DNA of 64,000 nt from Sandaracinaceae bacterium (GTDB lineage Bacteria > Myxococcota_A > Polyangia > Polyangiales > JADJQN01): contig JADJQN010000001.1 of the NCBI GenBank assembly GCA_016712745.1, positions 746,964-810,963 on the forward strand, read 5' to 3'. Under the pieces are notes generated by a model. It did not search any database, was not told the DNA's origin, and was given only the letters and a program-made list of their open reading frames with translations. Below, one piece after another: positions 1,378 to 36,640 of the stretch. Made by a program: the position numbers and the translations under genes. Position 1 is the stretch's first letter. Each line of letters starts with the position of its first letter.

Positions 1378-4149
1378 ATGACCGAGGAGATGCCTAAAGC
1401 TTACGACCCGCGCGAGACGGAGCCGCGCTGGTATGCGTATTGGGAGAAGGAAGGCCTCTTCCGCGCGACGGGCAAGCCGGGCGACGCGCGTCCGACGTAT
1501 GTCATAGCGATTCCTCCGCCCAACGTCACGGGCTCGCTGCACATGGGTCACGCGTGTCGCACGACGTTCGAAGACGCGCTCATTCGTCACAAGCGCATGC
1601 AGGGCTTCGACACGCTTTGGATCCCAGGCACCGATCACGCGGGCATCGCGACGCAGGTGGTCGTTGAGCGCTTGCTCAAAGCCGAAGGCAAGACGCGTCA
1701 TGATTTGGGGCGCGCTGAATTCATCAAGCGCGTTTGGCAGTGGAAGGAAGAATCGGGAAACCGCATCCTTCATCAGCTGCGCAAGCTCGGCGCGAGCTGC
1801 GATTGGTCGCACGAACGCTTCACGATGGACGAAGGGCTCTCGACGGCGGTGCGCGAAGTCTTCGTGCGTCTCTACGAAGAAGGTTTGATCTACCGCGACA
1901 CGCGTCTCGTGAACTGGGACGTCGAGACGCAGACCGTTTTGTCGGACCTCGAAGTCGATACCGAAGAGAACGTTCAGGGCGAGCTCTTCGAATTTGCGTA
2001 CAACGTCGAAGGCGGCGGCGAGGTCGTTGTTGCAACCACGCGACCCGAAACGATGCTTGGTGATTCGGGCTTGGCAGTTCATCCTGACGATCCGCGCTAC
2101 ACGCACTTGCACGGCAAGTTCGTCACGCACCCTTTTGTCTCGCGCCGCATTCCGATCATTGCGGACGCGGTACTCGTCGATCCGAAGTTCGGAACGGGCG
2201 TAGTCAAAGTTACGCCCGCACACGACTTCAACGATTTCGCGACCGGCAAGCGCCATAAGCTCGAGGAAATCAGCGTCATCGGCTTGAACGGCAAGATGAA
2301 CGAGAACGCCGGTGAGTTCCAAGGCCAAGACCGATTCGTCGCGCGCAAGCAGGTGAAGAAGAAGCTCGAGGAGCTAGGCCTTGTCCGCGGGTCGAAGCCG
2401 CACGTGATGACGCTGCCCAAATCACAGCGCTCAGGCACCGTTGTCGAACCCGTGATCAGCACGCAGTGGTTCGTGCGCATGCAACCACTCGCCGCACCCG
2501 CGATTGAAGCCGTTCAGAGCGGCAAGATTCAAATCGTTCCCGAAGAGTGGACGAAGACTTATTTCCACTGGATGAACAACATCCAGGATTGGTGCATCTC
2601 GCGCCAGCTCTGGTGGGGACATGAAATCCCTGCGTGGTATTGCGACGACTGTGAGCACATCAATGTTTCGCGCGAGACGCCAACCGCGTGCTCGAAGTGT
2701 AAGTCCGCCAATCTTCGCCAGGACGCGGACGTACTCGATACGTGGTTCAGCTCGGCGCTGTGGCCCTTCTCGACTCTCGGCTGGCCCGAGAAGACGCCGG
2801 ACCTTGCGCGTTACTACCCGACGACGGACATGGAGACGGGATTCGATATCCTCTTCTTCTGGGTCGCGCGCATGATCATGATGGGCCTAAAGTTCATGGG
2901 CGATGTGCCCTTCCGTCGTGTGCTGCTCTCAGGTCTTGTCACAGACGAGCGCGGCGAGAAGATGTCGAAGACCAAGGGCAACGTCATCGATCCGCTCGAT
3001 GTCATCGGTGGCTCGACGCTCGATGCGCTTGTGGCGAAGGCGGCCGATGCCGGGGCCAAGCCCTCCGGACTCGACTACCTGAAGAAGACGTATCCCGAGG
3101 GTTTTGCGGCCTATGGCGCAGATGCACTGCGCTTCACATTGGCGAGCTATGCGCCTCAGCAACGCAAGATTGCACTTTCGATCAAGCGCATCGAAGGCTA
3201 CCGCAACTTCTGCAACAAGCTGTGGAACGCGGCGCGTTTCTCGCTCGGCAAGCTCGAGGGACACGATGTCCGCGCGAGCGGGGAGCGGCCGGCTGCAACC
3301 TTGCTCGCCAATCGCTGGATCCTTTCGCGCCTCGACGCGGCGACGTCGACCGCGCAAAAGGGAATCGATGAGTATCGCCTCGATGATGCGAGCGGCGCTC
3401 TCTATCACTTCGTGTGGGGAGAACTCTGCGATTGGTATCTCGAGCTCACCAAGCCGCTACTAACTTCGGACGACCCGCGCGTCGTCAGCGAAACACTTGC
3501 GGTGCTCATGCACGTCATCGAAACAACGTTGCGCCTCTTGCATCCGTTCATTCCCTTCGTGACCGAAGAAATCTGGCAACGCATTCCGAAGACTGCCGCT
3601 GCACCGAAGAGCATCGTCATCGCCGCCTACCCGAAGGAAGGCCTCGAGGGCAAAGCGGATGCGGATGCCGAGCGCGAGATGTCCTCACTTATCGCCGTGA
3701 TCGTCGCCGCGCGCACGATGCGCTCCGAACACGACTTAGCGCCAAGCCGCGAAGTGCCGCTCATGCTGCGCACCGATGACCCGACCATCACCGCGCTGCT
3801 CACTCGTGAGCTTGCGGCGGTCACGACGCTGTGCCGTGCAACGGTCACCATCGCGAAGAGCGCTGGCAGCGAAGCAGCCGAAGATGCCGCAGTCGCCGTC
3901 GCGGAAGGCGTCACCATCATCATGCCGCTGGCGGGTCTCGTCGATCACGCCAAGGAACGCGAACGTCTCACGCGCGAAATCGCCAAGACCGTCAAGGACA
4001 TCGAAGCGATACAGAAGAAGCTCGGCAATGCAGGCTTCCTCGAGCGCGCACCCGCGGCGCTAGTCGAAACCGAACGCGCCCGCCTCACCGAACTTGAAAC
4101 CTCCCAGACCCGCCTCACCCAGGCCCTCGGTAAACTTCCCGCGGCGTGA
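1378..4149 (+). CDS. valS: valine--tRNA ligase
   Basis: 923 aa. Class I HIGH-type motif (SLHMGHA) and KMSKS motif (KMSKTKGN), a ValRS-length editing insertion, and a C-terminal coiled coil. Confidence 0.97.
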   Translation: MTEEMPKAYDPRETEPRWYAYWEKEGLFRATGKPGDARPTYVIAIPPPNVTGSLHMGHACRTTFEDALIRHKRMQGFDTLWIPGTDHAGIATQVVVERLLKAEGKTRHDLGRAEFIKRVWQWKEESGNRILHQLRKLGASCDWSHERFTMDEGLSTAVREVFVRLYEEGLIYRDTRLVNWDVETQTVLSDLEVDTEENVQGELFEFAYNVEGGGEVVVATTRPETMLGDSGLAVHPDDPRYTHLHGKFVTHPFVSRRIPIIADAVLVDPKFGTGVVKVTPAHDFNDFATGKRHKLEEISVIGLNGKMNENAGEFQGQDRFVARKQVKKKLEELGLVRGSKPHVMTLPKSQRSGTVVEPVISTQWFVRMQPLAAPAIEAVQSGKIQIVPEEWTKTYFHWMNNIQDWCISRQLWWGHEIPAWYCDDCEHINVSRETPTACSKCKSANLRQDADVLDTWFSSALWPFSTLGWPEKTPDLARYYPTTDMETGFDILFFWVARMIMMGLKFMGDVPFRRVLLSGLVTDERGEKMSKTKGNVIDPLDVIGGSTLDALVAKAADAGAKPSGLDYLKKTYPEGFAAYGADALRFTLASYAPQQRKIALSIKRIEGYRNFCNKLWNAARFSLGKLEGHDVRASGERPAATLLANRWILSRLDAATSTAQKGIDEYRLDDASGALYHFVWGELCDWYLELTKPLLTSDDPRVVSETLAVLMHVIETTLRLLHPFIPFVTEEIWQRIPKTAAAPKSIVIAAYPKEGLEGKADADAEREMSSLIAVIVAARTMRSEHDLAPSREVPLMLRTDDPTITALLTRELAAVTTLCRATVTIAKSAGSEAAEDAAVAVAEGVTIIMPLAGLVDHAKERERLTREIAKTVKDIEAIQKKLGNAGFLERAPAALVETERARLTELETSQTRLTQALGKLPAA

Positions 4150-8441: not shown

Positions 8442-9134
8442 ATGTATGCTCCGTGCGTGCGCGTTCTAGTTGTCGACGATGAGGAAGAAGTTCGTAGCGT
8501 AGTTGCGCGCTCGCTCGAACGCGACGGACACGCCGTCCTCACAGCATCGACAATCGAGGCCGCGCGCGTGTCCGTGCTTGCAGGGGTCGATTTGGTTGTG
8601 CTGGATCTCGGCCTACCCGATGGCTCAGGCGTTGAGTTTTGTCGCGAGCTGCGCGAGCGCAATCTCAGTTTGCCGATATTGATTCTAACCGCCCGCACGC
8701 AGGTAGACGTGCGTGTGCAGGGGCTCGACGCGGGTGCCGACGATTTTGTTGCTAAGCCATTCGCGATTTCTGAGCTGCGCGCACGGGTGCGTGCTCTCGG
8801 CCGGCGCGGAAACATTTTGCGCGCATTCTCCCATACGCATGCCGATGTCGTACTTGATCTCGCCGGCCGCAAAGCATCCAGAGCGGGGCAAGCCGTTCCT
8901 GTCACGGCGCGCGAGTGGGCGATCATCGAGGTCTTGGCGAATCGCGTTGGCCGATTCACGACGAAAGAGGCCCTGCTCGACGCCGTGTGGGGTGACGCGA
9001 GTGAGCGCGCTGGCAACAGCTTAGAAGTGCTGATCGCACGCTTGCGCAAAAAGTTTGGTCCAACCTTGATTGAGACGCTGCGCGGTGAGGGCTACTCGCT
9101 GCGAGGAGGTGCAGGCGATGGCAACGCTGCGTAG
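8442..9134 (+). CDS. OmpR/PhoB-family response regulator
   Basis: Receiver (VLVVDDEEE, LVVLDLGLPDGSG, FVAKPF) plus winged-helix output domain (LTAREWAIIEVLA, LEVLIARLRKKF, ETLRGEGYSL). The start is ATG 8442 or GTG 8457. Confidence 0.9.
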   Translation: MYAPCVRVLVVDDEEEVRSVVARSLERDGHAVLTASTIEAARVSVLAGVDLVVLDLGLPDGSGVEFCRELRERNLSLPILILTARTQVDVRVQGLDAGADDFVAKPFAISELRARVRALGRRGNILRAFSHTHADVVLDLAGRKASRAGQAVPVTAREWAIIEVLANRVGRFTTKEALLDAVWGDASERAGNSLEVLIARLRKKFGPTLIETLRGEGYSLRGGAGDGNAA

Positions 9135-15795: not shown

Positions 15796-15916
15796 TGAAT
15801 CAGGCTCCCACGCTGGCCTTAACGCAGGCTGAACAACCGGACCTCCAGAAAGAAGGGTCGCTGGTCTAGCGCGCGTGGCCGTGGCACACCGAGCTCACAT
15901 CGAAAGCAGGCAAAAT

Positions 15917-16342
15917 ATGGCGTGGTGGGTATACGCGTTCATCTCCGCGGCAGCGGCTGCGGCCACGGCGATTCTCGCGAAGATCGGGATGCAAGGCGTT
16001 TCCTCAACGCTTGCGACAGCGCTCCGCACGTGTGTCGTCCTGGCCTTTGCGTGGTCCATGGTTTTCATCGCCGGAGAACAGCAAGGCATTCGCGATTTGA
16101 AAACGCGTTCGCTCGTGTATCTGGGACTCTCGGGAGCGGCGACGGGGATCTCGTGGCTCGCCTACTTCAAAGCACTACACATGGCCCCAGCCTCGCGAGT
16201 GGCGCCTGTAGACAAGATAAGCCTCGCACTTACCATCGTTCTCGCCGCGGTCGTGCTCGGCGAAACCATCACCTGGAAAGTCGGCGTCGGCGCAGCCCTT
16301 ATCGTAGCCGGCGCCCTACTCACCCTAAGCCCGGACGCGTAA
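15917..16342 (+). CDS. small EamA/DMT-family membrane transporter
   Basis: About 141 aa with four or five TM helices and a single EamA-type repeat (SRVAPVDKISLALTIVLAAVVLGE). ATG 15917 is preferred over the ORF-track start at 15875. Confidence 0.7.
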   Translation: MAWWVYAFISAAAAAATAILAKIGMQGVSSTLATALRTCVVLAFAWSMVFIAGEQQGIRDLKTRSLVYLGLSGAATGISWLAYFKALHMAPASRVAPVDKISLALTIVLAAVVLGETITWKVGVGAALIVAGALLTLSPDA

Positions 16343-16379: not shown

Positions 16380-16548
16380 CACACTCGAGTCAGGTCTTCC
16401 AGATTGGACTGAGGCGCGAGCGCGCCCGCAGACAACTGAGGGAGTGAGCTCTTGCCCATGACCGAAGGCGGCGAGCACCGGAAAGCGCTTCAGCTTTCCG
16501 CTGGCATTCAAAGCCGCGGATCAGGCCAATCTGGAAGACCTCAGTGTG
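16380..16548. repeat. long inverted-repeat element in the EamA/polA convergent gap
   Basis: AGGTCTTCCAGATTGG (16392-16407) and its perfect reverse complement CCAATCTGGAAGACCT (16526-16541) flank 118 nt. An extra 6-bp pairing, CACACT (16380-16385) with AGTGTG (16543-16548), extends the stem. An inner 7-bp hairpin is GGAAAGC-gcttca-GCTTTCC. Confidence 0.6.
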
Positions 16549-19237
16549 CTTTGCCCCAACTCGGCCCCCAGCCCTGATCCACGACCAGTGGAACGTCGAG
16601 CTTGATGACGCTCTCCATGGTCCTCTTCACCATCGAACCGACGACGTCTTTTTCTTCCGGCGGGACCTCGAACACGAGCTCATCGTGAACGGTGAGCAGC
16701 ATGCGTGCTTGTAGCTTCTGAGCCACAAGCTCGCGGTCGACATTGACCATCGCAATCTTGATGATGTCAGCGCTCGTGCCTTGAATGGGTGTGTTGCGCG
16801 CCACGCGTTCGGCAGCCATACGCAGCCCACGATTAGCGCTGGTCAGCTCATTGATGACGCGTTTGCGGCCGAGCAACGTGCGAACGCTTCCGCTCACGCG
16901 CGCTTCCTCAATCACAGTATCGAGGAACTTCTTTACGCCTGCGTAACGTTCGAAGAAGGCCGTGATGTAGTGCGCTGCTTCTTTACGGTCGATACGAAGA
17001 TTGCGTGCCAACGCGAATTCCGTTTGGCCGTAGATGACAGCGAAGTTCACGGTCTTGGCGCGTCCACGCATCTCACGTGTCACGCCCTCGGTCGGTACAC
17101 CGAAGAGAGCGCGCGCAGTTCGAATGTGAACGTCCTCGCCCGTGACGAAGGCCTCCACCAGCTCCGGGTCGTGGCTGAGGTGCGCAAGTACGCGCAGCTC
17201 AATCTGCGAGTAATCGGACGACATCATGAGCCAGCCGGGCTTGGCGATGAAAGCGTCGCGAATCGAACGTCCAAGCTCCGTGCGGATCGGAATGTTCTGA
17301 AGATTGGGATCGCTGGAGGACAGCCGGCCGGTCGCAGCCACCGCCTGGTTGTAGCGCGTGTGCACTCGCCCTTCTCTGTCCAAAACCTTCGGAAGAATTT
17401 CGAGGTAGGTGCTCTTCAATTTGGAAAGCGCGCGATGCTCGAGAATGGTGCCCGGCAATGGATGCTCGGCCGCAAGTTCCTCCAGCACTTCGTGATCGGT
17501 CGAGCGCGCCGTCTTCGTGCGCTTGATCACGCGCAGGCCAAGCTCGTCGAAGAGCACCGTTTCCAGCTGGCGCGGCGCGCCGAGATTGATGTCGCGTCCG
17601 ACGATTTCACGACAGCGCGCTTCGAGCTTGTTCATCTCGCCTGCGACCAACTTCGACAAGGTCGTCATGTGATGTATGTCGAGCAGAATCCCGGTGCGCT
17701 CCATCTTCGCGAGCACGTGGGACAGCGGCAGCTCGATTTCCTGAAGCATCTTCTCGAGCCCCTCGGCCTCAACGCGCGTGCGCATGGCGTTGGCGGCGTT
17801 GCGAAGAGCGTCGACTGACTTGACGGCATAGTCTGTCGCAGTCTCGACGCTGATCTCCGCCATCGGCTTCTGCGAGCCTCGCTGCTTCTCGGTAATAATG
17901 TCGTAGAGCGGCAAATCCACGCGCGACTCACTCTGCGCAACTTCGGTCAGCGAATGGCCACCGCGCTCTGGATCGAGGAGGTAGCTCGCGAGCATTGTGT
18001 CAAAGTCCACGCCCAAAAGATCAATGCCCTGCGACTTCAGCATGTTCTCGTCGCGCTTTGAGTCCGCGAGATCTTTACGGACGCGCGCATCTTCAAATAG
18101 CGGCTTGAGTGCGGCCCAAGTTTCCTTGATATCGAGCTGCTTTGGCGCACCAAGGTAGAGGTGACCCATAGGCAGATACGCCGCGTCCGACTCGCCCCAC
18201 GCAAGCGCCACTCCGATGGGACGTGCGCCTGAGAAGTCGCTCTGGTCGAGCACCGGGAACATCGCAAAACGGCCCACTTTCCTGATCGCAGCGACGATCT
18301 TATCCACATCAACGCCGCTTGAGCTGGACGAAACTTTAGTTTCGACTTTCGGTTCGGTGTTGGGCTTCAATTGTGCGAGCAGACGCGTGAACTCAAACTC
18401 AGTGAAGAGTGCGCGAAGCTTCTCTGTATCGGCTCCGCCGTACTGCAGCTTCGCCAAATCAAGCTCCACCGGAATGTCATCGCGCAAGGTCACGAGGCGC
18501 TGCGAGAGGAGCGCTGCTTCCTTGTGTTCGACCAGCTTGTCGTGAAGCCCCTTCTTCTTGATCTTCTCGATATTCTCGTACACGCCTTCGAGCGTTCCGT
18601 AATCGATGAGTAGCTGCGCCGCCGTCTTAGGCCCCACCGAGGGAACGCCTGGAACGTTGTCCGACGAGTCGCCCATGAGCGCGAGCAAGTCGCGCACTTG
18701 CTCCGGGGCAACCCCCATTTTCTCCTTGGTCTCGTCGGCCCCAAAAACCTTGTCGCGCATCGAGTCGAACATGAGTACATTTTCATCGACGAGCTGCAAA
18801 AGATCTTTGTCCGCGCTCACGACGACGACGCGCAGTCCGGCCGCCTTTGCCTTCTTGACGATGCTCGCGATCAAATCATCCGCTTCAACGCCGTCCTGCT
18901 GGAATGTCGGAATCGCGTAGGCGTCGATCACTTCGCGCAGGCGCTCGACTTGCTGCTTGAGATCGGGCGGCGTGGGCGGACGGGTGGCCTTGTACTCCGG
19001 GTACATTTCATGACGAAACGATTTCGTCTTGCTATCGAGGGCCACCGCCAAGAGCGCCGGCTTCTGCACATCGACGAGCTTTTGCATCATCGCCGTCACG
19101 CCATAGATGGCATTCGTCGGCTGCCCCTTCTTGTTCGAAAGCGGAGGGATCGCGTGATAGGCGCGGAAGACGTAGCCGCTGAAATCGACGACAAAAAGCG
19201 TGTTGGGATCGTGGGCGTTGGGGAGCTTCGCGCTCAT
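16541..19237 (-). CDS. polA: DNA polymerase I
   Basis: 898 aa. N-terminal 5'-3' exonuclease domain, a 3'-5' exonuclease-like middle, and family A polymerase motifs (DYSQIELRVLAH, RGRAKTVNFAVIYG, TVHDELVFE). Confidence 0.97.
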   Translation of the reverse strand: MSAKLPNAHDPNTLFVVDFSGYVFRAYHAIPPLSNKKGQPTNAIYGVTAMMQKLVDVQKPALLAVALDSKTKSFRHEMYPEYKATRPPTPPDLKQQVERLREVIDAYAIPTFQQDGVEADDLIASIVKKAKAAGLRVVVVSADKDLLQLVDENVLMFDSMRDKVFGADETKEKMGVAPEQVRDLLALMGDSSDNVPGVPSVGPKTAAQLLIDYGTLEGVYENIEKIKKKGLHDKLVEHKEAALLSQRLVTLRDDIPVELDLAKLQYGGADTEKLRALFTEFEFTRLLAQLKPNTEPKVETKVSSSSSGVDVDKIVAAIRKVGRFAMFPVLDQSDFSGARPIGVALAWGESDAAYLPMGHLYLGAPKQLDIKETWAALKPLFEDARVRKDLADSKRDENMLKSQGIDLLGVDFDTMLASYLLDPERGGHSLTEVAQSESRVDLPLYDIITEKQRGSQKPMAEISVETATDYAVKSVDALRNAANAMRTRVEAEGLEKMLQEIELPLSHVLAKMERTGILLDIHHMTTLSKLVAGEMNKLEARCREIVGRDINLGAPRQLETVLFDELGLRVIKRTKTARSTDHEVLEELAAEHPLPGTILEHRALSKLKSTYLEILPKVLDREGRVHTRYNQAVAATGRLSSSDPNLQNIPIRTELGRSIRDAFIAKPGWLMMSSDYSQIELRVLAHLSHDPELVEAFVTGEDVHIRTARALFGVPTEGVTREMRGRAKTVNFAVIYGQTEFALARNLRIDRKEAAHYITAFFERYAGVKKFLDTVIEEARVSGSVRTLLGRKRVINELTSANRGLRMAAERVARNTPIQGTSADIIKIAMVNVDRELVAQKLQARMLLTVHDELVFEVPPEEKDVVGSMVKRTMESVIKLDVPLVVDQGWGPSWGKAH

Positions 19238-29421: not shown

Positions 29422-29571
29422 ACGCGAGGAGGTGAGCGGCACCTCCACAGAATCGCGCAATAAAGCGGTGTGTGTCCATCTCGCACACGGCCAAGGCCCC
29501 ACTTGAATATGACAGCGCCGCGCACTAGCCTCGCGGCATGTTTCGACCGTGGGGGTCGGAGCACCTGAACT

Positions 29572-31329
29572 ATGCTTCGCACACGTCTGATCGCTGGCTC
29601 GGCCGCGGGGTTTGTGCTGAGTGCGGTTTTCGCAACCGTCAGCGCCGGTATCGGCATTGGCGATGCGCTCGTAGAGCCGCTGCGTGTGGTTCCAGGCCAG
29701 CCTGCGCCCATCACGCTACGCCTGCCTCCGATCACCGTGCGCGACGCCGACCCGGTCAGCGGCGTCGTCGTTCTGCGGAACATCCAACCGGTGGTCCCGC
29801 GCGGTTCCATCATCAGTAACCGACGCGCAGGCTTTCGCGACACCTACACCGAGAACTTGGTACGGCTCTACGAGAGTAGCCGGCGTCCTCCGCCGATCGG
29901 CGCCGTCATTGGCCTGTGGTTTGTCTATTTCCTCATCGCGATGCTCATCACGAGTTATCTGCGCACCTTCATTCCTAGTCGGGGCGCCCTGCTCCGCACG
30001 CAAGCAGGCATGTTGGGACTGGGGCTCATCCTGCTGGCCGTGGCGAAAGTTGTCCTGCTTATGACGGCAGCTTCTCCCTACGTCCTTCCGGTCGCGGCTG
30101 TGCCGTTATGGGCCTCGCTCTATTTGGACCGACGCACTTCGTTCATGGTGACTATGACGTTCGCGTTCCTCGCCGCGTCCCTGATCGGTTTCAGCCTCAC
30201 GGCGGTCACGGTCTTCATGGCGGCCGGCATGGCCGGGGCATTTGGCTTTCGCGACCGAAAGCACTCCACCTCGCTGCTTGTCGCGGGCGTGGTATCGGGC
30301 ATCGCCTCAGCAGCAGTACTCATCGCGGCCAAAATGCTTTTCGAGGGCGGCATCAACGTTGTCGAGGATCTGAAGCGCTTCACCGAATCAGAGCTTCTGT
30401 CCGCGGCCACCGGTGGCGTGCTTTCGGGCGCGTTTGCCTTTACCTTGCAGCCGCTCGCAGTGCTGGTGCTCGGGGCGGTTTCGCGCAGCCGGCTCCTCGA
30501 CCTCACAGACCTCGAGCAGCCACTGCTGCAGAAGATGGCGCGCGAAGCTCCTGGTTCGTGGGAACACTCGCGCGCGATGGCTAACCTCGCCGAAGCGGCT
30601 GCGGCGGCCGTCGGCGCCGATTCACTGCTGACGCGCGTCGGCGCCTACTATCACGACCTCGGAAAGACCTGTCAGCCGAAGTACTTCGTCGAGAATCTCG
30701 AACCGGGCGAGACGAGCCCGCACGCCGACCTCGAACCGGATGTAAGCGCTGATGCCATCATGGCGCACGTCGTTGAAGGCGTGAGCATCCTTCGCAAGGG
30801 CGGCATCCCGGAGCCTGTGGTGGAGTTCGCATACACGCACCACGGCACGAGCATCATCGAGTACTTCTGGCACAAGTGTTTGGAGCAAGGGAATCCGAAG
30901 AATCTCAAAGAGACCTTTTTCCGTTATCCCGGCATGCGTCCGCGCAACAAAGAGACCGCGATTCTCATGCTGATCGATTCTATCGAAGCCGCATCGCGCA
31001 CGGTGTTTCCGCCGGAGCGCGCGAAGTTCGAAGAAATGGTGCAGCGCATTCTCTTTGTGAAGCTCAAGCAAGGCCAGCTCGACGAATCGGGTTTGACGCT
31101 GGAGGATTTGCGCGTGCTCTCGACGCGCGTGACTGAGACGTTGCTGAATGTCTACCACGGCCGCGTGCGCTATCCATGGCAGGACCGTCAGGCGCGCGGC
31201 GAAGCACAGCTGCCCGTCCCCGGTCTCGCGACGGAAAAAGACATGGAGCGTGACCAAGCCGAAAAAGAGCGCACGGGACGACAAACAGTGTCTCCGCCCG
31301 TACCGCCCAAGGACGATCACCACCACTGA
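29572..31329 (+). CDS. 7TM-receptor HD/HDIG phosphohydrolase (PgpH/YqfF-like)
   Basis: N-terminal extracytoplasmic region, seven TM helices, and a cytoplasmic HD domain (WEHSRAMANLA, GAYYHDLGKT, YTHHG). Confidence 0.8.
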   Translation: MLRTRLIAGSAAGFVLSAVFATVSAGIGIGDALVEPLRVVPGQPAPITLRLPPITVRDADPVSGVVVLRNIQPVVPRGSIISNRRAGFRDTYTENLVRLYESSRRPPPIGAVIGLWFVYFLIAMLITSYLRTFIPSRGALLRTQAGMLGLGLILLAVAKVVLLMTAASPYVLPVAAVPLWASLYLDRRTSFMVTMTFAFLAASLIGFSLTAVTVFMAAGMAGAFGFRDRKHSTSLLVAGVVSGIASAAVLIAAKMLFEGGINVVEDLKRFTESELLSAATGGVLSGAFAFTLQPLAVLVLGAVSRSRLLDLTDLEQPLLQKMAREAPGSWEHSRAMANLAEAAAAAVGADSLLTRVGAYYHDLGKTCQPKYFVENLEPGETSPHADLEPDVSADAIMAHVVEGVSILRKGGIPEPVVEFAYTHHGTSIIEYFWHKCLEQGNPKNLKETFFRYPGMRPRNKETAILMLIDSIEAASRTVFPPERAKFEEMVQRILFVKLKQGQLDESGLTLEDLRVLSTRVTETLLNVYHGRVRYPWQDRQARGEAQLPVPGLATEKDMERDQAEKERTGRQTVSPPVPPKDDHHH

Positions 31330-31339
31330 GTGAGGCATC

Positions 31340-33066
31340 ATGGCCGCGCGCGCACAGAGCTTTATGAAATCGTTGTTCCACGGCGTCATCGCCGAGGAGC
31401 TCATCTTTCCCTATCCAGAAATGGCGGCGGACGAACGCGAGAACGTTCAGCTCATGCGCGAGAGTATCGCCAAGTTCGCGGAGCAGCACGTCGACCCGAA
31501 GAAAATCGACGAGGAGCACCACATCCCTGATGAAGTGCTAAAAGGGATGAAGGAGCTCGGCCTTTTCGGCTTGAGCATTCCGGAGCAGTACGGCGGCATC
31601 GGCCTCTCGCACACCGCATATGCACGCGTTGTTCAAGATGTTGCAGCGATTGACGCGTCTCTCGCAGTTACGCTCGGCGCACACCAATCCATTGGACTCA
31701 AAGCGCTGCTACTCTTCGGCACCGAAGCGCAGAAGAAGAAGTACCTGCCGCGCCTCGCGACGGGCGAGTGGGTAGCGGCGTTTGCGCTCACGGAGCCGGG
31801 CGCGGGCAGCGACGCGGCAAGCATAACGACGCACGCCGAGCTCACGGCCGACGGTGAGCATTACGTTCTCAACGGCTCGAAGATTTGGATCACCAACGGC
31901 GGCTTTGCTGATCTCTTCACGGTCTTTGCGCGCACAAGTTCACCGGACAGCGGCAGCAAGCCGCGCATCACCGCCCTGCTCGTAGAGCGGTCGTACGGCG
32001 TAAAGAACGGACCGTCGGAAAAGAAGATGGGCATTCGCGGCTCTTCGACGACGGAACTTTTTTTCGAGGACGTAAAGGTTCCAGCGGCGAACGTGCTCGG
32101 CGAAGCGGGTCGCGGCTTCAAAGTTGCGATGGAGGTGCTGAACAACGGACGACTCGGTCTTGCATCGGGTGCGCTTGGCAATTGCAAACACCTCATCCAA
32201 CTGGCTGTGCAGCGCACTCAGGAGCGCAATGCCTTCGGCCGCAAGATTGGCGATTTCGGCATGATCAAAGACAAGGTCGCGCGCATGATGTGCGAGACCT
32301 ATGCGCTCGAGTCGATGACCTATCTGACGGCGGGTCTCATCGACGCCGGCGTGCACGACTACTCGCTCGAGAGCGCTATCTGCAAAGTCTTCGGCTCGGA
32401 AACGCTGTGGCGCATTGTGAACGAGACGATGCAAATCGCCGCGGGCATTGGTTATATGTCGGACTACCCCTACGAGCGCTATTTGCGTGACGCGCGCATC
32501 AATCTCATCTTTGAGGGCACCAACGAGATTCTACGCGCCTTTATTGCACTCTCGGGCATGCAGGGACCCGGACAACAGCTGACCGAGGTGGCGCGCGCCA
32601 TGCGCGAACCATTAAGGGATTTGGAGTCCTTAGCGACTTTGCGATCCAGCGCGCGCGCTCGGCCCTTGGCCGCGAGCGACTTGAAAAAGTGCACCCTCTC
32701 CTTCGGCGCGAATCCGTCATCTTCGAAGAAGCCGTGGGAGGACTCGCGCGTGAAACAGAGCGAATCCTGCGCAAGCACGGCAAGCACATTGCCGAACGTC
32801 AGTTCGTGCAAAAGCGCATCGCGGAGGTTGCGATCGATCTCTACGCGCTCTCGGCGATTCTCTCGCGCACAACGCGAACCATTGAACAGCGCGGCGTCGA
32901 GGCATCGCGTCGCGAGATCGATCTCGCAGCGGGCTTTGCCACCCTGGCCAACGATCGCCTGAAGGGCCGCCTCGATCACATGGAGCGTGAGGACGACGAA
33001 CTTCTCAAACAGATCGCCGGCAGCGCTTACGAGGATGCCGGATACCCGTACGACGTCATCGGCTGA
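31340..33066 (+). pseudogene. VLCAD/ACAD9-type acyl-CoA dehydrogenase, frame broken at about 32609-32611
   Basis: ACAD motifs ALTEPGAGSDAAS, IWITNGG and IFEGTNEILR. After ...VARAMRE the frame degenerates. The +2 frame continues IKGFGVLSDFAIQRARSALGRERLEKVHPLL...AIDLYALSAILSRTTRTI... to the stop at 33066, which is the typical VLCAD C-terminal extension. Confidence 0.85.
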
Positions 33067-33070
33067 GCGG

Positions 33071-33508
33071 GTGCGTCCCCTTCGGTACGTTGCGGGAGTC
33101 TGCGCCGCGCTTCTGATGACGAGCTGCGATCAATTGGGCAATCCGCCCCGTCGCTCCAGAACAGAAGCGCACCCGTGGCAAAGCGGCGTCTTGCAGCTCG
33201 TGACACGCACCGAGTCCATTGCGGTCTCGCGTGTGCAACTTTTGCTTGCAGAGCACGCCGGCGAAGAGATCTTGGGCGAACCTGCCCCTCGCGACCCCGA
33301 AGGAGTTGCAACACTTGTGAGCGTCGTCGCTCGAGTCAGCCCGGCCATTCCGCCCGGCACGCGCCTTACAATCGCAACCACGTTCCGCGCCCGTGACGGA
33401 AGCTCAGTCGTGCGGCGCTGGTACGGTCAGCCGGGCGATCCAACGTGGCTCGGGCTGTTCTATCTGCCCGAGGCGCCTGTGGCTGCCGTGACTACGCTCG
33501 CGCAATGA
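33071..33508 (+). CDS. small lipoprotein (no family recognised)
   Basis: GTG start 4 nt after the ACAD stop. Lipobox AALLMTSC. About 145 aa. Confidence 0.5.
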   Translation: MRPLRYVAGVCAALLMTSCDQLGNPPRRSRTEAHPWQSGVLQLVTRTESIAVSRVQLLLAEHAGEEILGEPAPRDPEGVATLVSVVARVSPAIPPGTRLTIATTFRARDGSSVVRRWYGQPGDPTWLGLFYLPEAPVAAVTTLAQ

Positions 33509-33563
33509 TCGTTTAGACGACGTGCATCGTTGCGCCGATGGACTATCCTGCCCGGCCTCAGCC

Positions 33564-34934
33564 ATGCGCAAACAGAGCCCCCACTCACTCCCAGTACTTT
33601 TCGCTCTCTTGGTAACGGCCGCGTCCTGCGCAACTACGGACGACGAGCATGCTGCGGCCGCACACGCTGCAGTCGCGCGCACCGGTCCGTGGCTAATCCC
33701 CACCACTGTTCGTGCAAGCGCGGCAACCCAGGATGTAACGATCACTGAGGCTGGATTGTGGGTTGGCACGAGCGGGTGCTCAGGTTCGTTCACGGAAGGC
33801 GCTCGGATTTTCGGCGACTACCTCCTGGAGAACTTCCCGCAGGTCTCCGACTACGGCGGCTACGACTGCCGCCCCATCGTCGGCGCCGAAGACTGGATGT
33901 CGGTGCATGCAACGGGCCGTGCCCTCGATCTCTTCATACCGGTTGACACGGATGTCGCATCCCCAGGTGACGCCGACAACGACGCGGGCGACGCTGTGGC
34001 CAATTGGCTTATCGCCAATGCCGAATACATCGGCGTGCAGCGCGTGATTTGGGACCGATGGATCTGGCAGGCGGATTCCGATCCTACAGCGCGCGATGGC
34101 GCCTACGATTTTGCAGGCTCGCACCCGCATAACGATCACATTCACATGGAGCTCTCAGTAGAAGCATCCGAGATGGACACTGAGTTCTTCTCAGGTCCGA
34201 TGGATCCGCCCGTACTCACGGGGTGCGCTGCCCTTCCCGCCGAAGGCGGCATCATCGACAATTCTGACGCGTGCTTTCAGGCATTCGGCAGCCCGACGTA
34301 CTGGCGCCAGGTCGAGGGTGCAGGTATCGGCGGCTCCTACATCTGGACGAATGCGTTTAGCTCGACCGATCCATCAAACTGGGCGCGCTGGGCGATCAAT
34401 CTCACCCGCTCGGGTCATTATGAAGTTGAAGTTCATGTGATCCCCGCGCACGCCGTCTTCGCACGCACACAGTATGAGATACGCCGCGCCGAGGGCTCTG
34501 GGACCGTGATCGTTGATCAGAGCGCGCACGCTGCATGGGTCACCTTGGGCGAGTTCGACTTCGTGTCCGGGGGCGCGCAATCCGTCTCGGTCTACGATAA
34601 CGCGAGCGGCACCGTGCCAAGCAATCAGAACATTTGCGTCGATGCGATCCGCGTTACGAATCTAGACCCGGTCGAGCCGACTGACGGTGGCGTCGGGATC
34701 GTGGACGGCGGCGTCGCCGACGCAGCACCGGAAGACACAGATGGCGGGGGTCTGCCTCGCGACGCGGGCGCGAACATCGACGGCGCTGCGAGCGGTGACG
34801 CATCAAGTTTTGCGAGTCCGCGGATGAGCAGCGGATGCTCGGTGAGCGCGCACACGGGTAGCCCCACGCCACTCCTGGCTGGGCTCTTCGCACTGCTGTA
34901 TCTGGTAGCGTCGCGCAGGCGTACACGGCGCTAG
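33564..34934 (+). CDS. secreted LAS/M15-type zinc peptidase with golvesin-like C-terminal domain and MYXO-CTERM sorting tag
   Basis: Lipobox-like signal LLVTAASC. SxHxxGxAxD motif (SVHATGRALD) and HxH (HNDHIHMEL). The domain CFQAFGSPTYWRQVEG...SGHYEVEVHVIP...VDAIRV follows. The C-terminal tag is SSGCSVSA-(hydrophobic helix)-SRRRTRR. Confidence 0.65.
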   Translation: MRKQSPHSLPVLFALLVTAASCATTDDEHAAAAHAAVARTGPWLIPTTVRASAATQDVTITEAGLWVGTSGCSGSFTEGARIFGDYLLENFPQVSDYGGYDCRPIVGAEDWMSVHATGRALDLFIPVDTDVASPGDADNDAGDAVANWLIANAEYIGVQRVIWDRWIWQADSDPTARDGAYDFAGSHPHNDHIHMELSVEASEMDTEFFSGPMDPPVLTGCAALPAEGGIIDNSDACFQAFGSPTYWRQVEGAGIGGSYIWTNAFSSTDPSNWARWAINLTRSGHYEVEVHVIPAHAVFARTQYEIRRAEGSGTVIVDQSAHAAWVTLGEFDFVSGGAQSVSVYDNASGTVPSNQNICVDAIRVTNLDPVEPTDGGVGIVDGGVADAAPEDTDGGGLPRDAGANIDGAASGDASSFASPRMSSGCSVSAHTGSPTPLLAGLFALLYLVASRRRTRR

Positions 34935-35094
34935 AACGCATCTCATAAATCCCGACCGAGGATTTCCGAAGCGCGGCCAAGCCGTAGCTAGGCGCGGCGA
35001 CGACGAATACTGGTTGTATTTGGAGGAGCCGCAACGACGCTACGGCGAAGTGCCCGCGAGGAAGCCGACCGAGGGATTTATGAGATGCGTTCTA
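34932..35094. mobile_element. MITE-like element with 22-bp perfect terminal inverted repeats
   Basis: TAGAACGCATCTCATAAATCCC (34932-34953) and its exact reverse complement GGGATTTATGAGATGCGTTCTA (35073-35094) flank 119 nt. The outermost TA on each side could be a TA target duplication. An inner 8-bp pair is GCCGTAGC/GCTACGGC. No transposase is present. Confidence 0.5.
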
Positions 35095-35113
35095 AAACGG
35101 ACGCTCGTCTCGG

Positions 35114-36640
35114 CTATTCCGGAACGACTTCGCCGCGTCCCGCTGCTTCGAGGCGCAAAGCCTCAATGGACGTCTCGAATTGATCGGCCATCTCCGGGTC
35201 GAACTGAGACCCGGAACAACGGCGGATTTCGGCAAGGGCTGTTTCGTGGGGCAGCGCCTTACGGTACGCCCGGTCGCTCGTCATCGCATCGTAGGTGTCG
35301 GCTACCGAAATGATACGTGCGATGAGCGGAATCTCCTGCGCCGTCATGCCAAGCGGGTAACCGCGCCCGTCCCAACGCTCATGATGCAAATGCACGCCAG
35401 GGATCAGTGGATGCAAAAAGGTAATCGGCTCGAGGATGTCTTTGCCGTAGCCAGGATGCTTCTTGAAGATCTCATAATCATCCTGCGAGAGCTTGCCGGG
35501 CTTGTTGAGGTTGAGCACGCAGCCAATCTTGCCGATGTCGTGCATCATGGCCGACTGTCGAACAATCTCGACCTGCTCTTCGGAAAGCTCGAGCTTGATA
35601 GCGAGGATCTGTGCGTATGCGGCAACACGCTCCGAGTGACCGGCCGTGTAGCGATCCATCTTGTCGATAGCGCTCGCGAGACCGCGAATCGTCTGGCGAA
35701 ACGTCGCCTTCAAGTCTTCGTATAGCTTTGCGTTCTCAATCGCCGCCGCAGCGCGATTGGCGACCATGCTGAGCAGCTTGCGCTGCCCTTCATCAAACTT
35801 CTTATCTTTCGTGTAGCTGCAGGCGACTAGGAAACCGATGATCTTTCCGCGCACACGAAGTGACGTAACGATCAACGCCTGCAGCTTCGTGCGTTCGGGC
35901 GCAACCTTGTAGTACCGATGACTACGCGTGCCGTGCAAACGAAGAGGCTTTTCTTCCTTGAACCACTCGAGCAGCGCATCGACATCGAGCTCGCCGTGAT
36001 CGAGGTCTCCATGCCACCTGGGCGAGACCTCGCGTGCTGCTTGAAAGAATCCGCCCTCGCCATCTGCGAGGAGCACTTCCACGGCGTCCGCTTCGACCTC
36101 GTGAATCGCAGCGTCCATCACCGTGCGCGTCACTTCGTCGAGCGAGAGCGATGCGGCGATGGCTTCGCTCACCTTGTAGAGCGACAAGGCTTCGCGCAGA
36201 CGAAGATTTTCTGCGTGGAGCTTTTGCTTTTCGAGCCCGCGCCGGATGACGTGCACTACCTCTTCAACCTTGAAGGGCTTGAGGATGTAGTCATACGCGC
36301 CGCGCTTCATCGCGTCGATGGCCGTCTCGACAGTGCCAAAGCCGGTCATGATGACCGTCACAACATTGGGAGTGTGCTTGGCAATCGCTTCGAGCAACTC
36401 GATGCCGCCCATGTTGGGCATCTTCAAATCGGTGAGCACCAAGTCGTAGGCCGAGCGCGAGAGCTCGACTAGCGCAGCAGCTCCGTCTTCAGCTGTGCGA
36501 ACCCAAAAGCCTTCCATCGACAGAAAGTCCGCAACGATCTCGCGGATCACTTTCTCATCGTCGACGACGAGTATTCGAGGCGACTCATCGGGAAGCAGGG
36601 ATTCGTTGATCGGGGATTCCATACTGGGGGCGGTCCCCAT
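35114..36640 (-). CDS. response regulator with GAF-like and HD-GYP domains (c-di-GMP phosphodiesterase type)
   Basis: Receiver (ILVVDDEKVIREIV, LVLTDLKMPNMGG), a GAF-like middle region, and HD-GYP motifs (HSERVAAY, MMHDIGKI, HHERWDGRGYP). Confidence 0.85.
   Translation of the reverse strand: MGTAPSMESPINESLLPDESPRILVVDDEKVIREIVADFLSMEGFWVRTAEDGAAALVELSRSAYDLVLTDLKMPNMGGIELLEAIAKHTPNVVTVIMTGFGTVETAIDAMKRGAYDYILKPFKVEEVVHVIRRGLEKQKLHAENLRLREALSLYKVSEAIAASLSLDEVTRTVMDAAIHEVEADAVEVLLADGEGGFFQAAREVSPRWHGDLDHGELDVDALLEWFKEEKPLRLHGTRSHRYYKVAPERTKLQALIVTSLRVRGKIIGFLVACSYTKDKKFDEGQRKLLSMVANRAAAAIENAKLYEDLKATFRQTIRGLASAIDKMDRYTAGHSERVAAYAQILAIKLELSEEQVEIVRQSAMMHDIGKIGCVLNLNKPGKLSQDDYEIFKKHPGYGKDILEPITFLHPLIPGVHLHHERWDGRGYPLGMTAQEIPLIARIISVADTYDAMTSDRAYRKALPHETALAEIRRCSGSQFDPEMADQFETSIEALRLEAAGRGEVVPE

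Follow-up and report, generated by a model that had tools for sequence, protein, structure and literature searches.

The 163-bp element at 34932..35094 of the window (the whole stretch of 64,000 nucleotides of Sandaracinaceae DNA that was analysed) is most probably a non-autonomous MITE derived from an insertion sequence (IS) of the IS5 family, IS427 type, which inserted at a CTAA holding the stop codon of a MYXO-CTERM gene, with the stop regenerated as TAG. The core of this reading, i.e., terminal inverted repeats (TIRs), TA flanks and a regenerated stop, had been put forward in a first-pass annotation; it was upheld by a near-identical copy at an unrelated locus, by diverged members elsewhere, and by ISs with the same termini. 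The element lacks a transposase gene, and its 163 bp fall within the size range of bacterial MITEs (about 30–300 bp).

The 163 bp, assigned to neither strand, include the flanking TAs, form a full-length foldback and have no protein-coding role: the single open frame across the element, as seen in six-frame translation, amounts to 54 codons of read-through and nothing more. The left TIR, TAGAACGCATCTCATAAATCCC (34932..34953, plus strand), and the right TIR, GGGATTTATGAGATGCGTTCTA (35073..35094, minus strand), are perfect complements over 22/22 nt (100%) with 119 nt between them, as had been claimed, and the tip of the foldback is a central stem-loop, GAATAC-TGGTT-GTATT, at 35005..35020. The arms are AT-rich relative to their surroundings (41% G+C vs. 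62% for the window), also in agreement with the annotation, whose chance expectation of about 1e-6 per window for such a pair agrees in magnitude with 64,000 positions x ~400 spacings x 4^-22. When up to 3 mismatches were allowed, these two sites were the sole occurrences of the 22-mer arm in the 64 kb, and 100 shuffles yielded no match at all. No further copy or degenerate TIR was found inside the window, the best other site (8765-8784) having 5 mismatches and being taken as chance; nor was a transposase homologue found within these 64 kb.

A second foldback lies at 16.4 kb of the window, with arms of 27 nt that are 89% matched. The two had been said to have almost equal spacers without similarity in sequence; the 119 nt of the MITE and the dissimilarity stood, and the spacer of the 16.4-kb foldback proved to be 96 nt, not 118. 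Kinship between them was rejected for want of any sequence similarity, and the likeness in spacer was put down to coincidence.

The position of the element relative to its neighbours can be read directly. The upstream gene (33564..34934, plus strand, within an ORF spanning 33522..34934) encodes a secreted VldE/Golvesin_C-domain protein of 456 aa with a MYXO-CTERM-type tail; it is matched at 100% over 456 aa by P0121, and many of its homologues bear MYXO-CTERM names. Its TAG stop at 34932-34934 is made of MITE bases 1–3, namely the left TA (34932..34933), a putative target-site duplication, plus G34934, so that the insertion does lie exactly at the stop codon, as annotated. The insertion leaves the upstream MYXO-CTERM protein unaltered, since the first 3 nt of the MITE serve as the stop codon of its gene. 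The right TA (35093..35094), putatively the second copy of the duplication, is followed by A35095, which gives a pre-insertion target C-TA-A, the original TAA stop. Excision of the MITE together with one TA yields ...CGG CGC TAA AAC GG with the in-frame TAA kept, just as had been proposed, and the reconstructed empty site at the window locus reads ...GGCGCTAAAACGG...; between the convergent genes 18 nt (35096-35113) would then remain, and the figure of 17 bp given earlier needs correction. The convergent downstream gene (35114..36622, minus strand, ORF to 36640) ends 19 nt past the MITE, at 35114, and encodes an RpfG-like response regulator of 502 aa, with receiver, GAF and HD-GYP domains, that is 100% identical to a Sandaracinaceae MAG protein (P0001). 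The MITE thus accounts for the 179-nt gap that separates the two convergent genes.

The parentage of the element was read from its ends. The terminus TAGAACGCATCTCATAAATC is also found at both ends of insertion sequences of 847 bp in Acidobacteriota MAGs. At loci L005 and L011 the terminal sequence is repeated in inverted form at a distance of 847 bp with 1–2 mismatches; the first 20 nt of the window's left TIR equal the left end of these ISs (20/20 nt), and the right ends agree at 18–19/20. Each has TA on both sides and carries two overlapping ORFs meeting at a slippery CAAAAAGGGGGG. The fused 261-aa product scored 234 bits against NCBIfam NF033580 (IS5 family transposase; cut-off 110), aligning to model positions 2–258 of 258, and it is the fused product alone that covers the whole model; the Pfam domains recognized were DUF4096 (PF13340; 1.7e-27) and DDE_Tnp_1 (PF01609; 9e-18). 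The transposase stop codon (…CAT TTA TGA) sits inside the right end of this parent-type IS, which partly explains the conservation of the inner TIR. An 18-mer of the terminus, GAACGCATCTCATAAATC, gave 18 single matches in a scan of 185,579 species genomes, close to the chance number, and none of these was in Myxococcota; TA preceded 8 of the 18, vs. an expected 1/16 (binomial P ~5e-6), and the 8 TA-preceded matches were mostly in Acidobacteriota and Verrucomicrobiota MAGs. The nearest annotated plasmid relatives of the transposase are IS5-family enzymes of Leptospira weilii (61% identity) and of Deinococcus, including ISDds9. The ends of the 867-bp L. weilii IS, TAGAACCCATCTCAAAAA and TTTTTGAGATGGGTTATA, match the window TIR at 16–17/20, and by sequence are clearly the same kind of terminus as that of the MITE.

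Elements of the IS427 group measure 832–865 bp, with inverted repeats of 13–21 bp, two frameshifted ORFs and a direct repeat of 2 (PMC3281130), and for one of them, ISPsp10, a trap experiment showed duplication of TA beside a TAA (PMC4133298). The L005 and L011 ISs resemble this group (IS1248, ISPpa2 and ISPaes1 of Paracoccus; ISPsp10 of Pseudomonas) in size class, two frameshifted ORFs, a transposase with DUF4096 and DDE_Tnp_1, ends starting GA after TA, and TA flanks; they are IS5-family elements of IS427-group architecture, the group being set by architecture and NF033580. The window MITE differs from such ISs in having no transposase and only ~20 nt in common at each end, its interior being unlike IS subterminal sequence when compared by eye. 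The full-length ISs carrying identical ends belong to phyla other than that of the MITE host.

The first-pass annotation had suggested instead that a transposase of IS630/Tc1-mariner type mobilised the MITE, and TA flanks with short TIRs are indeed typical of IS630-derived MITEs such as RUP (PMC2229807). This parentage was not borne out and we regard it as extremely improbable: the 20-nt identical termini belong to elements with an IS5-family transposase (NF033580, DUF4096 plus DDE_Tnp_1), the ends of the related IS5-family element from Leptospira are of this kind too, and all full-length elements recovered with such ends code for an IS5-family enzyme, no IS630-type match having been obtained. 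The TA flanks cannot separate the two families because IS427-group elements duplicate TA too (PMC3281130, PMC4133298).

That the element has moved as a 163-bp unit is argued by its other copies. A second copy occupies 314-476 of locus L034; it is likewise 163 bp, lies in the opposite orientation and differs from the window MITE by two 1-nt indels. The rest of L034 has no match in the window, the flanks being unrelated. It was found by a protein-database search with six-frame peptides of the MITE, which stood in for a DNA search, and the hit, P0241, is a predicted protein read straight through this sister copy. The proteins of the two genes adjoining it exactly match MBK8170292/3 (IPK60_08080/85) of a Sandaracinaceae MAG; for each of these, and for the window's response regulator, the longest contig on record is 1,976,722 bp. 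The sister copy, read from metagenome contigs and not from the MAG, is therefore apparently located elsewhere on the window's own contig. In or near this genome the element was seen only twice (the window; L034/L035). Contig L024, 99.4% identical to window 29551-34960, stops 29 nt into the MITE, and L035 begins 13 nt inside the sister copy; both are short-read contigs of other samples, and such breaks are the usual behaviour at a repeat. L024, L034 and L035 derive from the metagenomes SRR26425197, GCA_020050275.1 and GCA_020051655.1. The 29-nt overhang of L024 would fit k = 31 graph branching in the Logan contigs at a further copy that is also preceded by C. The window and L034 copies share the flank ACGGCGC/TA; this was rejected as a part of the element, for it stands at opposite ends relative to the internal orientation, and is better put down to an extended preference at the target or to chance.

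More diverged members were recovered from metagenomes by scanning for the inner 14 nt of both ends spaced 105–135 nt apart, which gave four loci, three of them distinct. These three further members (163–164 bp), from three other metagenomic organisms and in unrelated contexts, begin TAGAGCGCATCTCATAAATC and align over their full length with the minus strand of the window MITE, at 81% mean column identity and with few gaps. In Verrucomicrobiota, shorter elements of 124 and 134 bp occur at loci L017 and L009, each with one exact end and one degenerate far end. No MITE of this family was found in viral contigs or plasmids.

MITEs are generally held to arise through internal deletion of an IS, and the match to the IS lies at the ends only; both points suit the alternative that a full-length IS decayed in place and lost its interior, the 163 bp never having been mobile themselves. 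We give this very little credence, given that the same 163-bp structure stands at a second locus, two 1-nt indels apart, and that members of 163–164 bp with a homologous interior occur in three other organisms; the repeated length and interior argue against independent deletions, which would not recur identically.

The empty site was not recovered among response-regulator orthologues, MYXO-CTERM homologues or at the L021 locus, where each of the 10 contigs read carries the element. L023 (reached via P0002), the closest relative with synteny, has a response regulator with 89% protein and 79% DNA identity; there a small lipoprotein gene abuts the regulator gene, and both the MITE and the entire MYXO-CTERM gene are absent, so that window 33509-35113 is extra sequence relative to L023. 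In L028 (P0004 gave L028–L030) the downstream neighbourhood differs from that of the window, and the best non-self match among MYXO-CTERM homologues, 58% identical, lies in another context. At the left edge of the 1.6 kb of extra sequence, 33509-33563 (TTTAGACGACGTGCATC) was considered as a remnant TIR and dismissed as chance, since it needs two 2-nt gaps to fit and does not appear at ≤5 mismatches.

The whole 163 bp, and not the TIRs alone, fold as one long imperfect hairpin. Predicted RNA folds have energies of −97.9 kcal/mol (z = −10.9) for the plus strand and −84.5 kcal/mol (z = −7.3) for the minus strand, and the DNA fold −46.4 kcal/mol (z = −7.1). The tip motif AATAC-N5/6-GTATT is conserved in every family member, and standard pairs fill 94% of all cells across four distinct members. 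Changes on both sides of a pair were seen in 12 of 49 pairs, vs. 4.2 ± 1.7 in shuffles, with none of 500 shuffles reaching 12; in a control where the partner was slid by 1–3 columns the count fell to 2–5. One compensatory change lies within the TIR, where the window MITE has GAAC/GTTC vs. GAGC/GCTC in the other members.

A hairpin so stable on both strands, placed between convergent genes and showing compensatory changes throughout the family (the 12 of 49 pairs above), would also be expected of a host-encoded, non-mobile structure such as a bidirectional terminator, an mRNA-stabilising hairpin or a small RNA gene. We consider an origin of this kind very improbable. A search for intrinsic terminators (G+C-rich stem plus U-tract) over 34500-35500 on both strands gave 0 sites, the bases after the hairpin being AAAACGG on the plus strand and GCGCCGU on the minus strand rather than a U-tract; a scan of the element found no sigma-70-like promoter consensus; and Rfam 15 returned nothing credible (best E = 1.4), the only match on the MITE being MIR918 at 17.3 bits vs. 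a gathering threshold of 268 (E = 4.1). Moreover, the MITE ends equal IS termini, a near-identical copy stands in opposite orientation between unrelated flanks, and the element is missing from the syntenic position in a relative with an 89% identical response regulator. The annotation had said that a single copy without related TIRs anywhere, conserved as a hairpin at orthologous loci, would speak for such a host structure; what was found is that copies and related TIRs exist and that L023 is without the element. A secondary, exapted RNA role of the MITE hairpin, or a regulatory one, is conceivable.

Judged on four sequences, the foldback could have been retained because a hairpin, in DNA or in RNA, is selected for, or simply because the element was palindromic in origin and both its ends have to fit one transposase. 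The four co-directional copies all share one orientation relative to the upstream gene. Taken with the constant length of 163–164 bp, the conserved tip and the compensatory stem changes, this shared orientation leads us to entertain, though as an unlikely proposition, that the foldback has been kept as a functional structure and is not decaying junk. If so, the structure might serve as a single-stranded DNA hairpin in which the two ends come together for an IS5-type transposase; alternatively, exapted as an RNA hairpin at 3' ends, it might insulate or stabilise transcripts where gene ends are closely packed. Targeting of stop codons (CTAR) would then be a safe-landing strategy in high-G+C genomes.

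Target choice was assessed from the bases adjoining the TAs. The base 5' of the TA was C in 11 of 14 TA-flanked ends (window, L034, L019, L020, L022, L005, L009, L013, L015, L017 and others). On the 3' side of the second TA, 7 cases were readable, with G in 4 (L034, L019, L005, L011) and A in 1 (window). On these sequences the putative insertion target is C-TA-R. The copies in the window, L034 and L019, like the ISs, have TA on both flanks; being self-complementary, TA in a single copy may be counted equally with the duplication or with the TIR, and from the family members and the IS427-group literature we infer that it is a target-site duplication.

The window copy lies on the upstream stop codon and the L019 copy on the stop codon of ORF 2927..3346; the L021, L034 and L022 copies lie 3, 14 and 124 nt, respectively, after the upstream stop codon. 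Two of the five independent insertions are thus exactly on a stop codon and four of the five within 15 nt of one. The window contains 157 YTAR sites, 15 of them on stop codons of gene-like ORFs and 29 intergenic, so that stop codons make up about a third of the tolerated targets and no special mechanism is needed. Elements of this family come to lie on or just after stop codons because of C-TA-R targeting combined with purifying selection against coding insertions, and because the genome is 62% G+C, the non-coding YTAR sites are largely stop codons.

The steps by which the MITE reached its present site may be set out as follows. Having no gene of its own, the MITE would retain the ~20-nt termini recognised by the DDE transposase of such an IS, and transposase supplied in trans could move it. 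The transposase would insert it at the TA within C-TA-R and duplicate that TA, as suggested by family members and the literature. The target here would have been the CTAA holding the TAA stop of the MYXO-CTERM gene, where the left TA and the first G of the MITE now read TAG, so that the protein stayed unchanged and the insertion was tolerated. A transcript running into the MITE from one or other of the convergent genes would finish in a ~160-nt hairpin, and this might alter 3'-end stability or processing; such an effect is not needed to explain the presence of the MITE.

Among characterised repeats, the MITE is most readily compared with RUP (Streptococcus pneumoniae, derived from IS630-Spn1) and the Correia elements (Neisseria), which are likewise non-coding, ~100–160 bp, bounded by TIRs with terminal TA, able to form long hairpins, and placed mostly between genes or at gene ends. 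RUP and Correia elements are co-transcribed with their neighbours, and trans mobilisation has been inferred from TIR similarity to an IS, although for Correia elements no partner is known (PMC2229807, PMC4133298). They differ from the window MITE in showing no sequence similarity to it, whereas the MITE has an IS5/IS427 partner rather than IS630, and a high-G+C myxobacterium as host. The non-autonomous IS/Tn-ended elements described in PMC4133298 share with the MITE a low copy number and predicted RNA hairpins of comparable energy (−70 to −115 kcal/mol vs. −98), but use another transposase family, have target-site duplications of 5–6 bp and measure ~250 bp. One co-mention aside, no paper dealing with MITEs in myxobacteria was found in the literature searched.

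The element is an unnamed MITE family of a well-known kind in Sandaracinaceae, ordinary selfish DNA that does not overturn current understanding. As a repeat it interrupts short-read contigs (L024, L035), and its sister copy flags a source of wrong gene calls (P0241). One IS427-type terminus occurs nearly unchanged across Acidobacteriota, Verrucomicrobiota and Myxococcota, and Leptospira has a variant close to it; MITEs bearing the shared terminus measure 124, 134 and 163–164 bp. The landing on stop codons is a clear case of target specificity and selection together yielding insertions that are seemingly precise.

The junction 3' of the response-regulator gene, which is convergent with the MYXO-CTERM gene whose stop codon carries the 163-bp MITE (34932-35094), differs among relatives. 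About 1.6 kb of the window (33509-35113), comprising the MYXO-CTERM gene and the MITE, is missing from L023, the closest relative, at the syntenic locus, where the stop codons of the lipoprotein gene and the response regulator directly adjoin; the arrangement at another relative, L028, is different again.

We compared the flanks and orientation of the MITE copies. The sequence (A)CGGCGC lies directly 5' of the TA at three independent insertions, namely in the window (34925-34931), at the sister copy in metagenome contig L034 (307-313), and at the diverged family member in L022 (1823-1828), and the right flank in L034, GTGCC, is a near-complement of this left flank. The common flanks may have arisen by chance, or the target preference may extend to a longer palindrome, GCRC-TA-GYGC. 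All four copies situated between co-directional genes (L019, L021, L022 and L034) share one internal orientation with respect to the gene upstream of them, and three of the four end 17-30 nt before the point at which the next gene probably starts; the sample is too small for an orientation bias to be called.

Two short-read contigs from other samples break within the element: L024, which matches the window up to 34960, stops 29 nt into the MITE, and L035 begins 13 nt into its sister copy. Breaks of this kind fit a repeat present in several copies in the metagenomes concerned. The sister copy in L034 (314-476) is also spanned by a gene call, P0241 (300-779), which starts upstream of the MITE, passes through it in frame and enters the real lipoprotein gene. 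This database protein is an annotation artefact, and the true start of the lipoprotein gene is probably at MVPSILVALVCALAGC, about position 505. In the window copy one plus-strand frame is likewise open over all 163 bp (54 codons).

In contigs L036, L039 and L041 the L021-type MITE is preceded by a fibro-slime/PA14 gene, upstream of which lies a short ORF (30-323) with a reverse-transcriptase (RVT_1) match; the region of this ORF is annotated as a 309-aa protein in other contigs. At orthologous positions in two Verrucomicrobiota genomes (L001, 1846-1865; L012, 7906-7925) the IS end occurs singly, adjoined in both by a different hairpin repeat (TGTCATGTTGAGCGAA...TTCGCTCCGCTCAGAATGACA); it resembles a remnant solo TIR next to a second repeat family.

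Two other inverted repeats were seen in the window. The 21-nt repeat at 30250-30432 (90% complementary, arms 141 nt apart) was assumed to be chance. The 150-bp foldback at 16392-16541, unrelated to the MITE, has 27-nt arms that are 89% complementary, and its predicted RNA folding energy is -80 kcal/mol (z = -5.4). The ORFs on either side of this foldback are convergent (15875..16342, plus strand; 16541..19237, minus strand). Its right arm terminates on the stop codon of the minus-strand ORF, and it may represent another MITE family in a position of the same kind as that of the 163-bp element.
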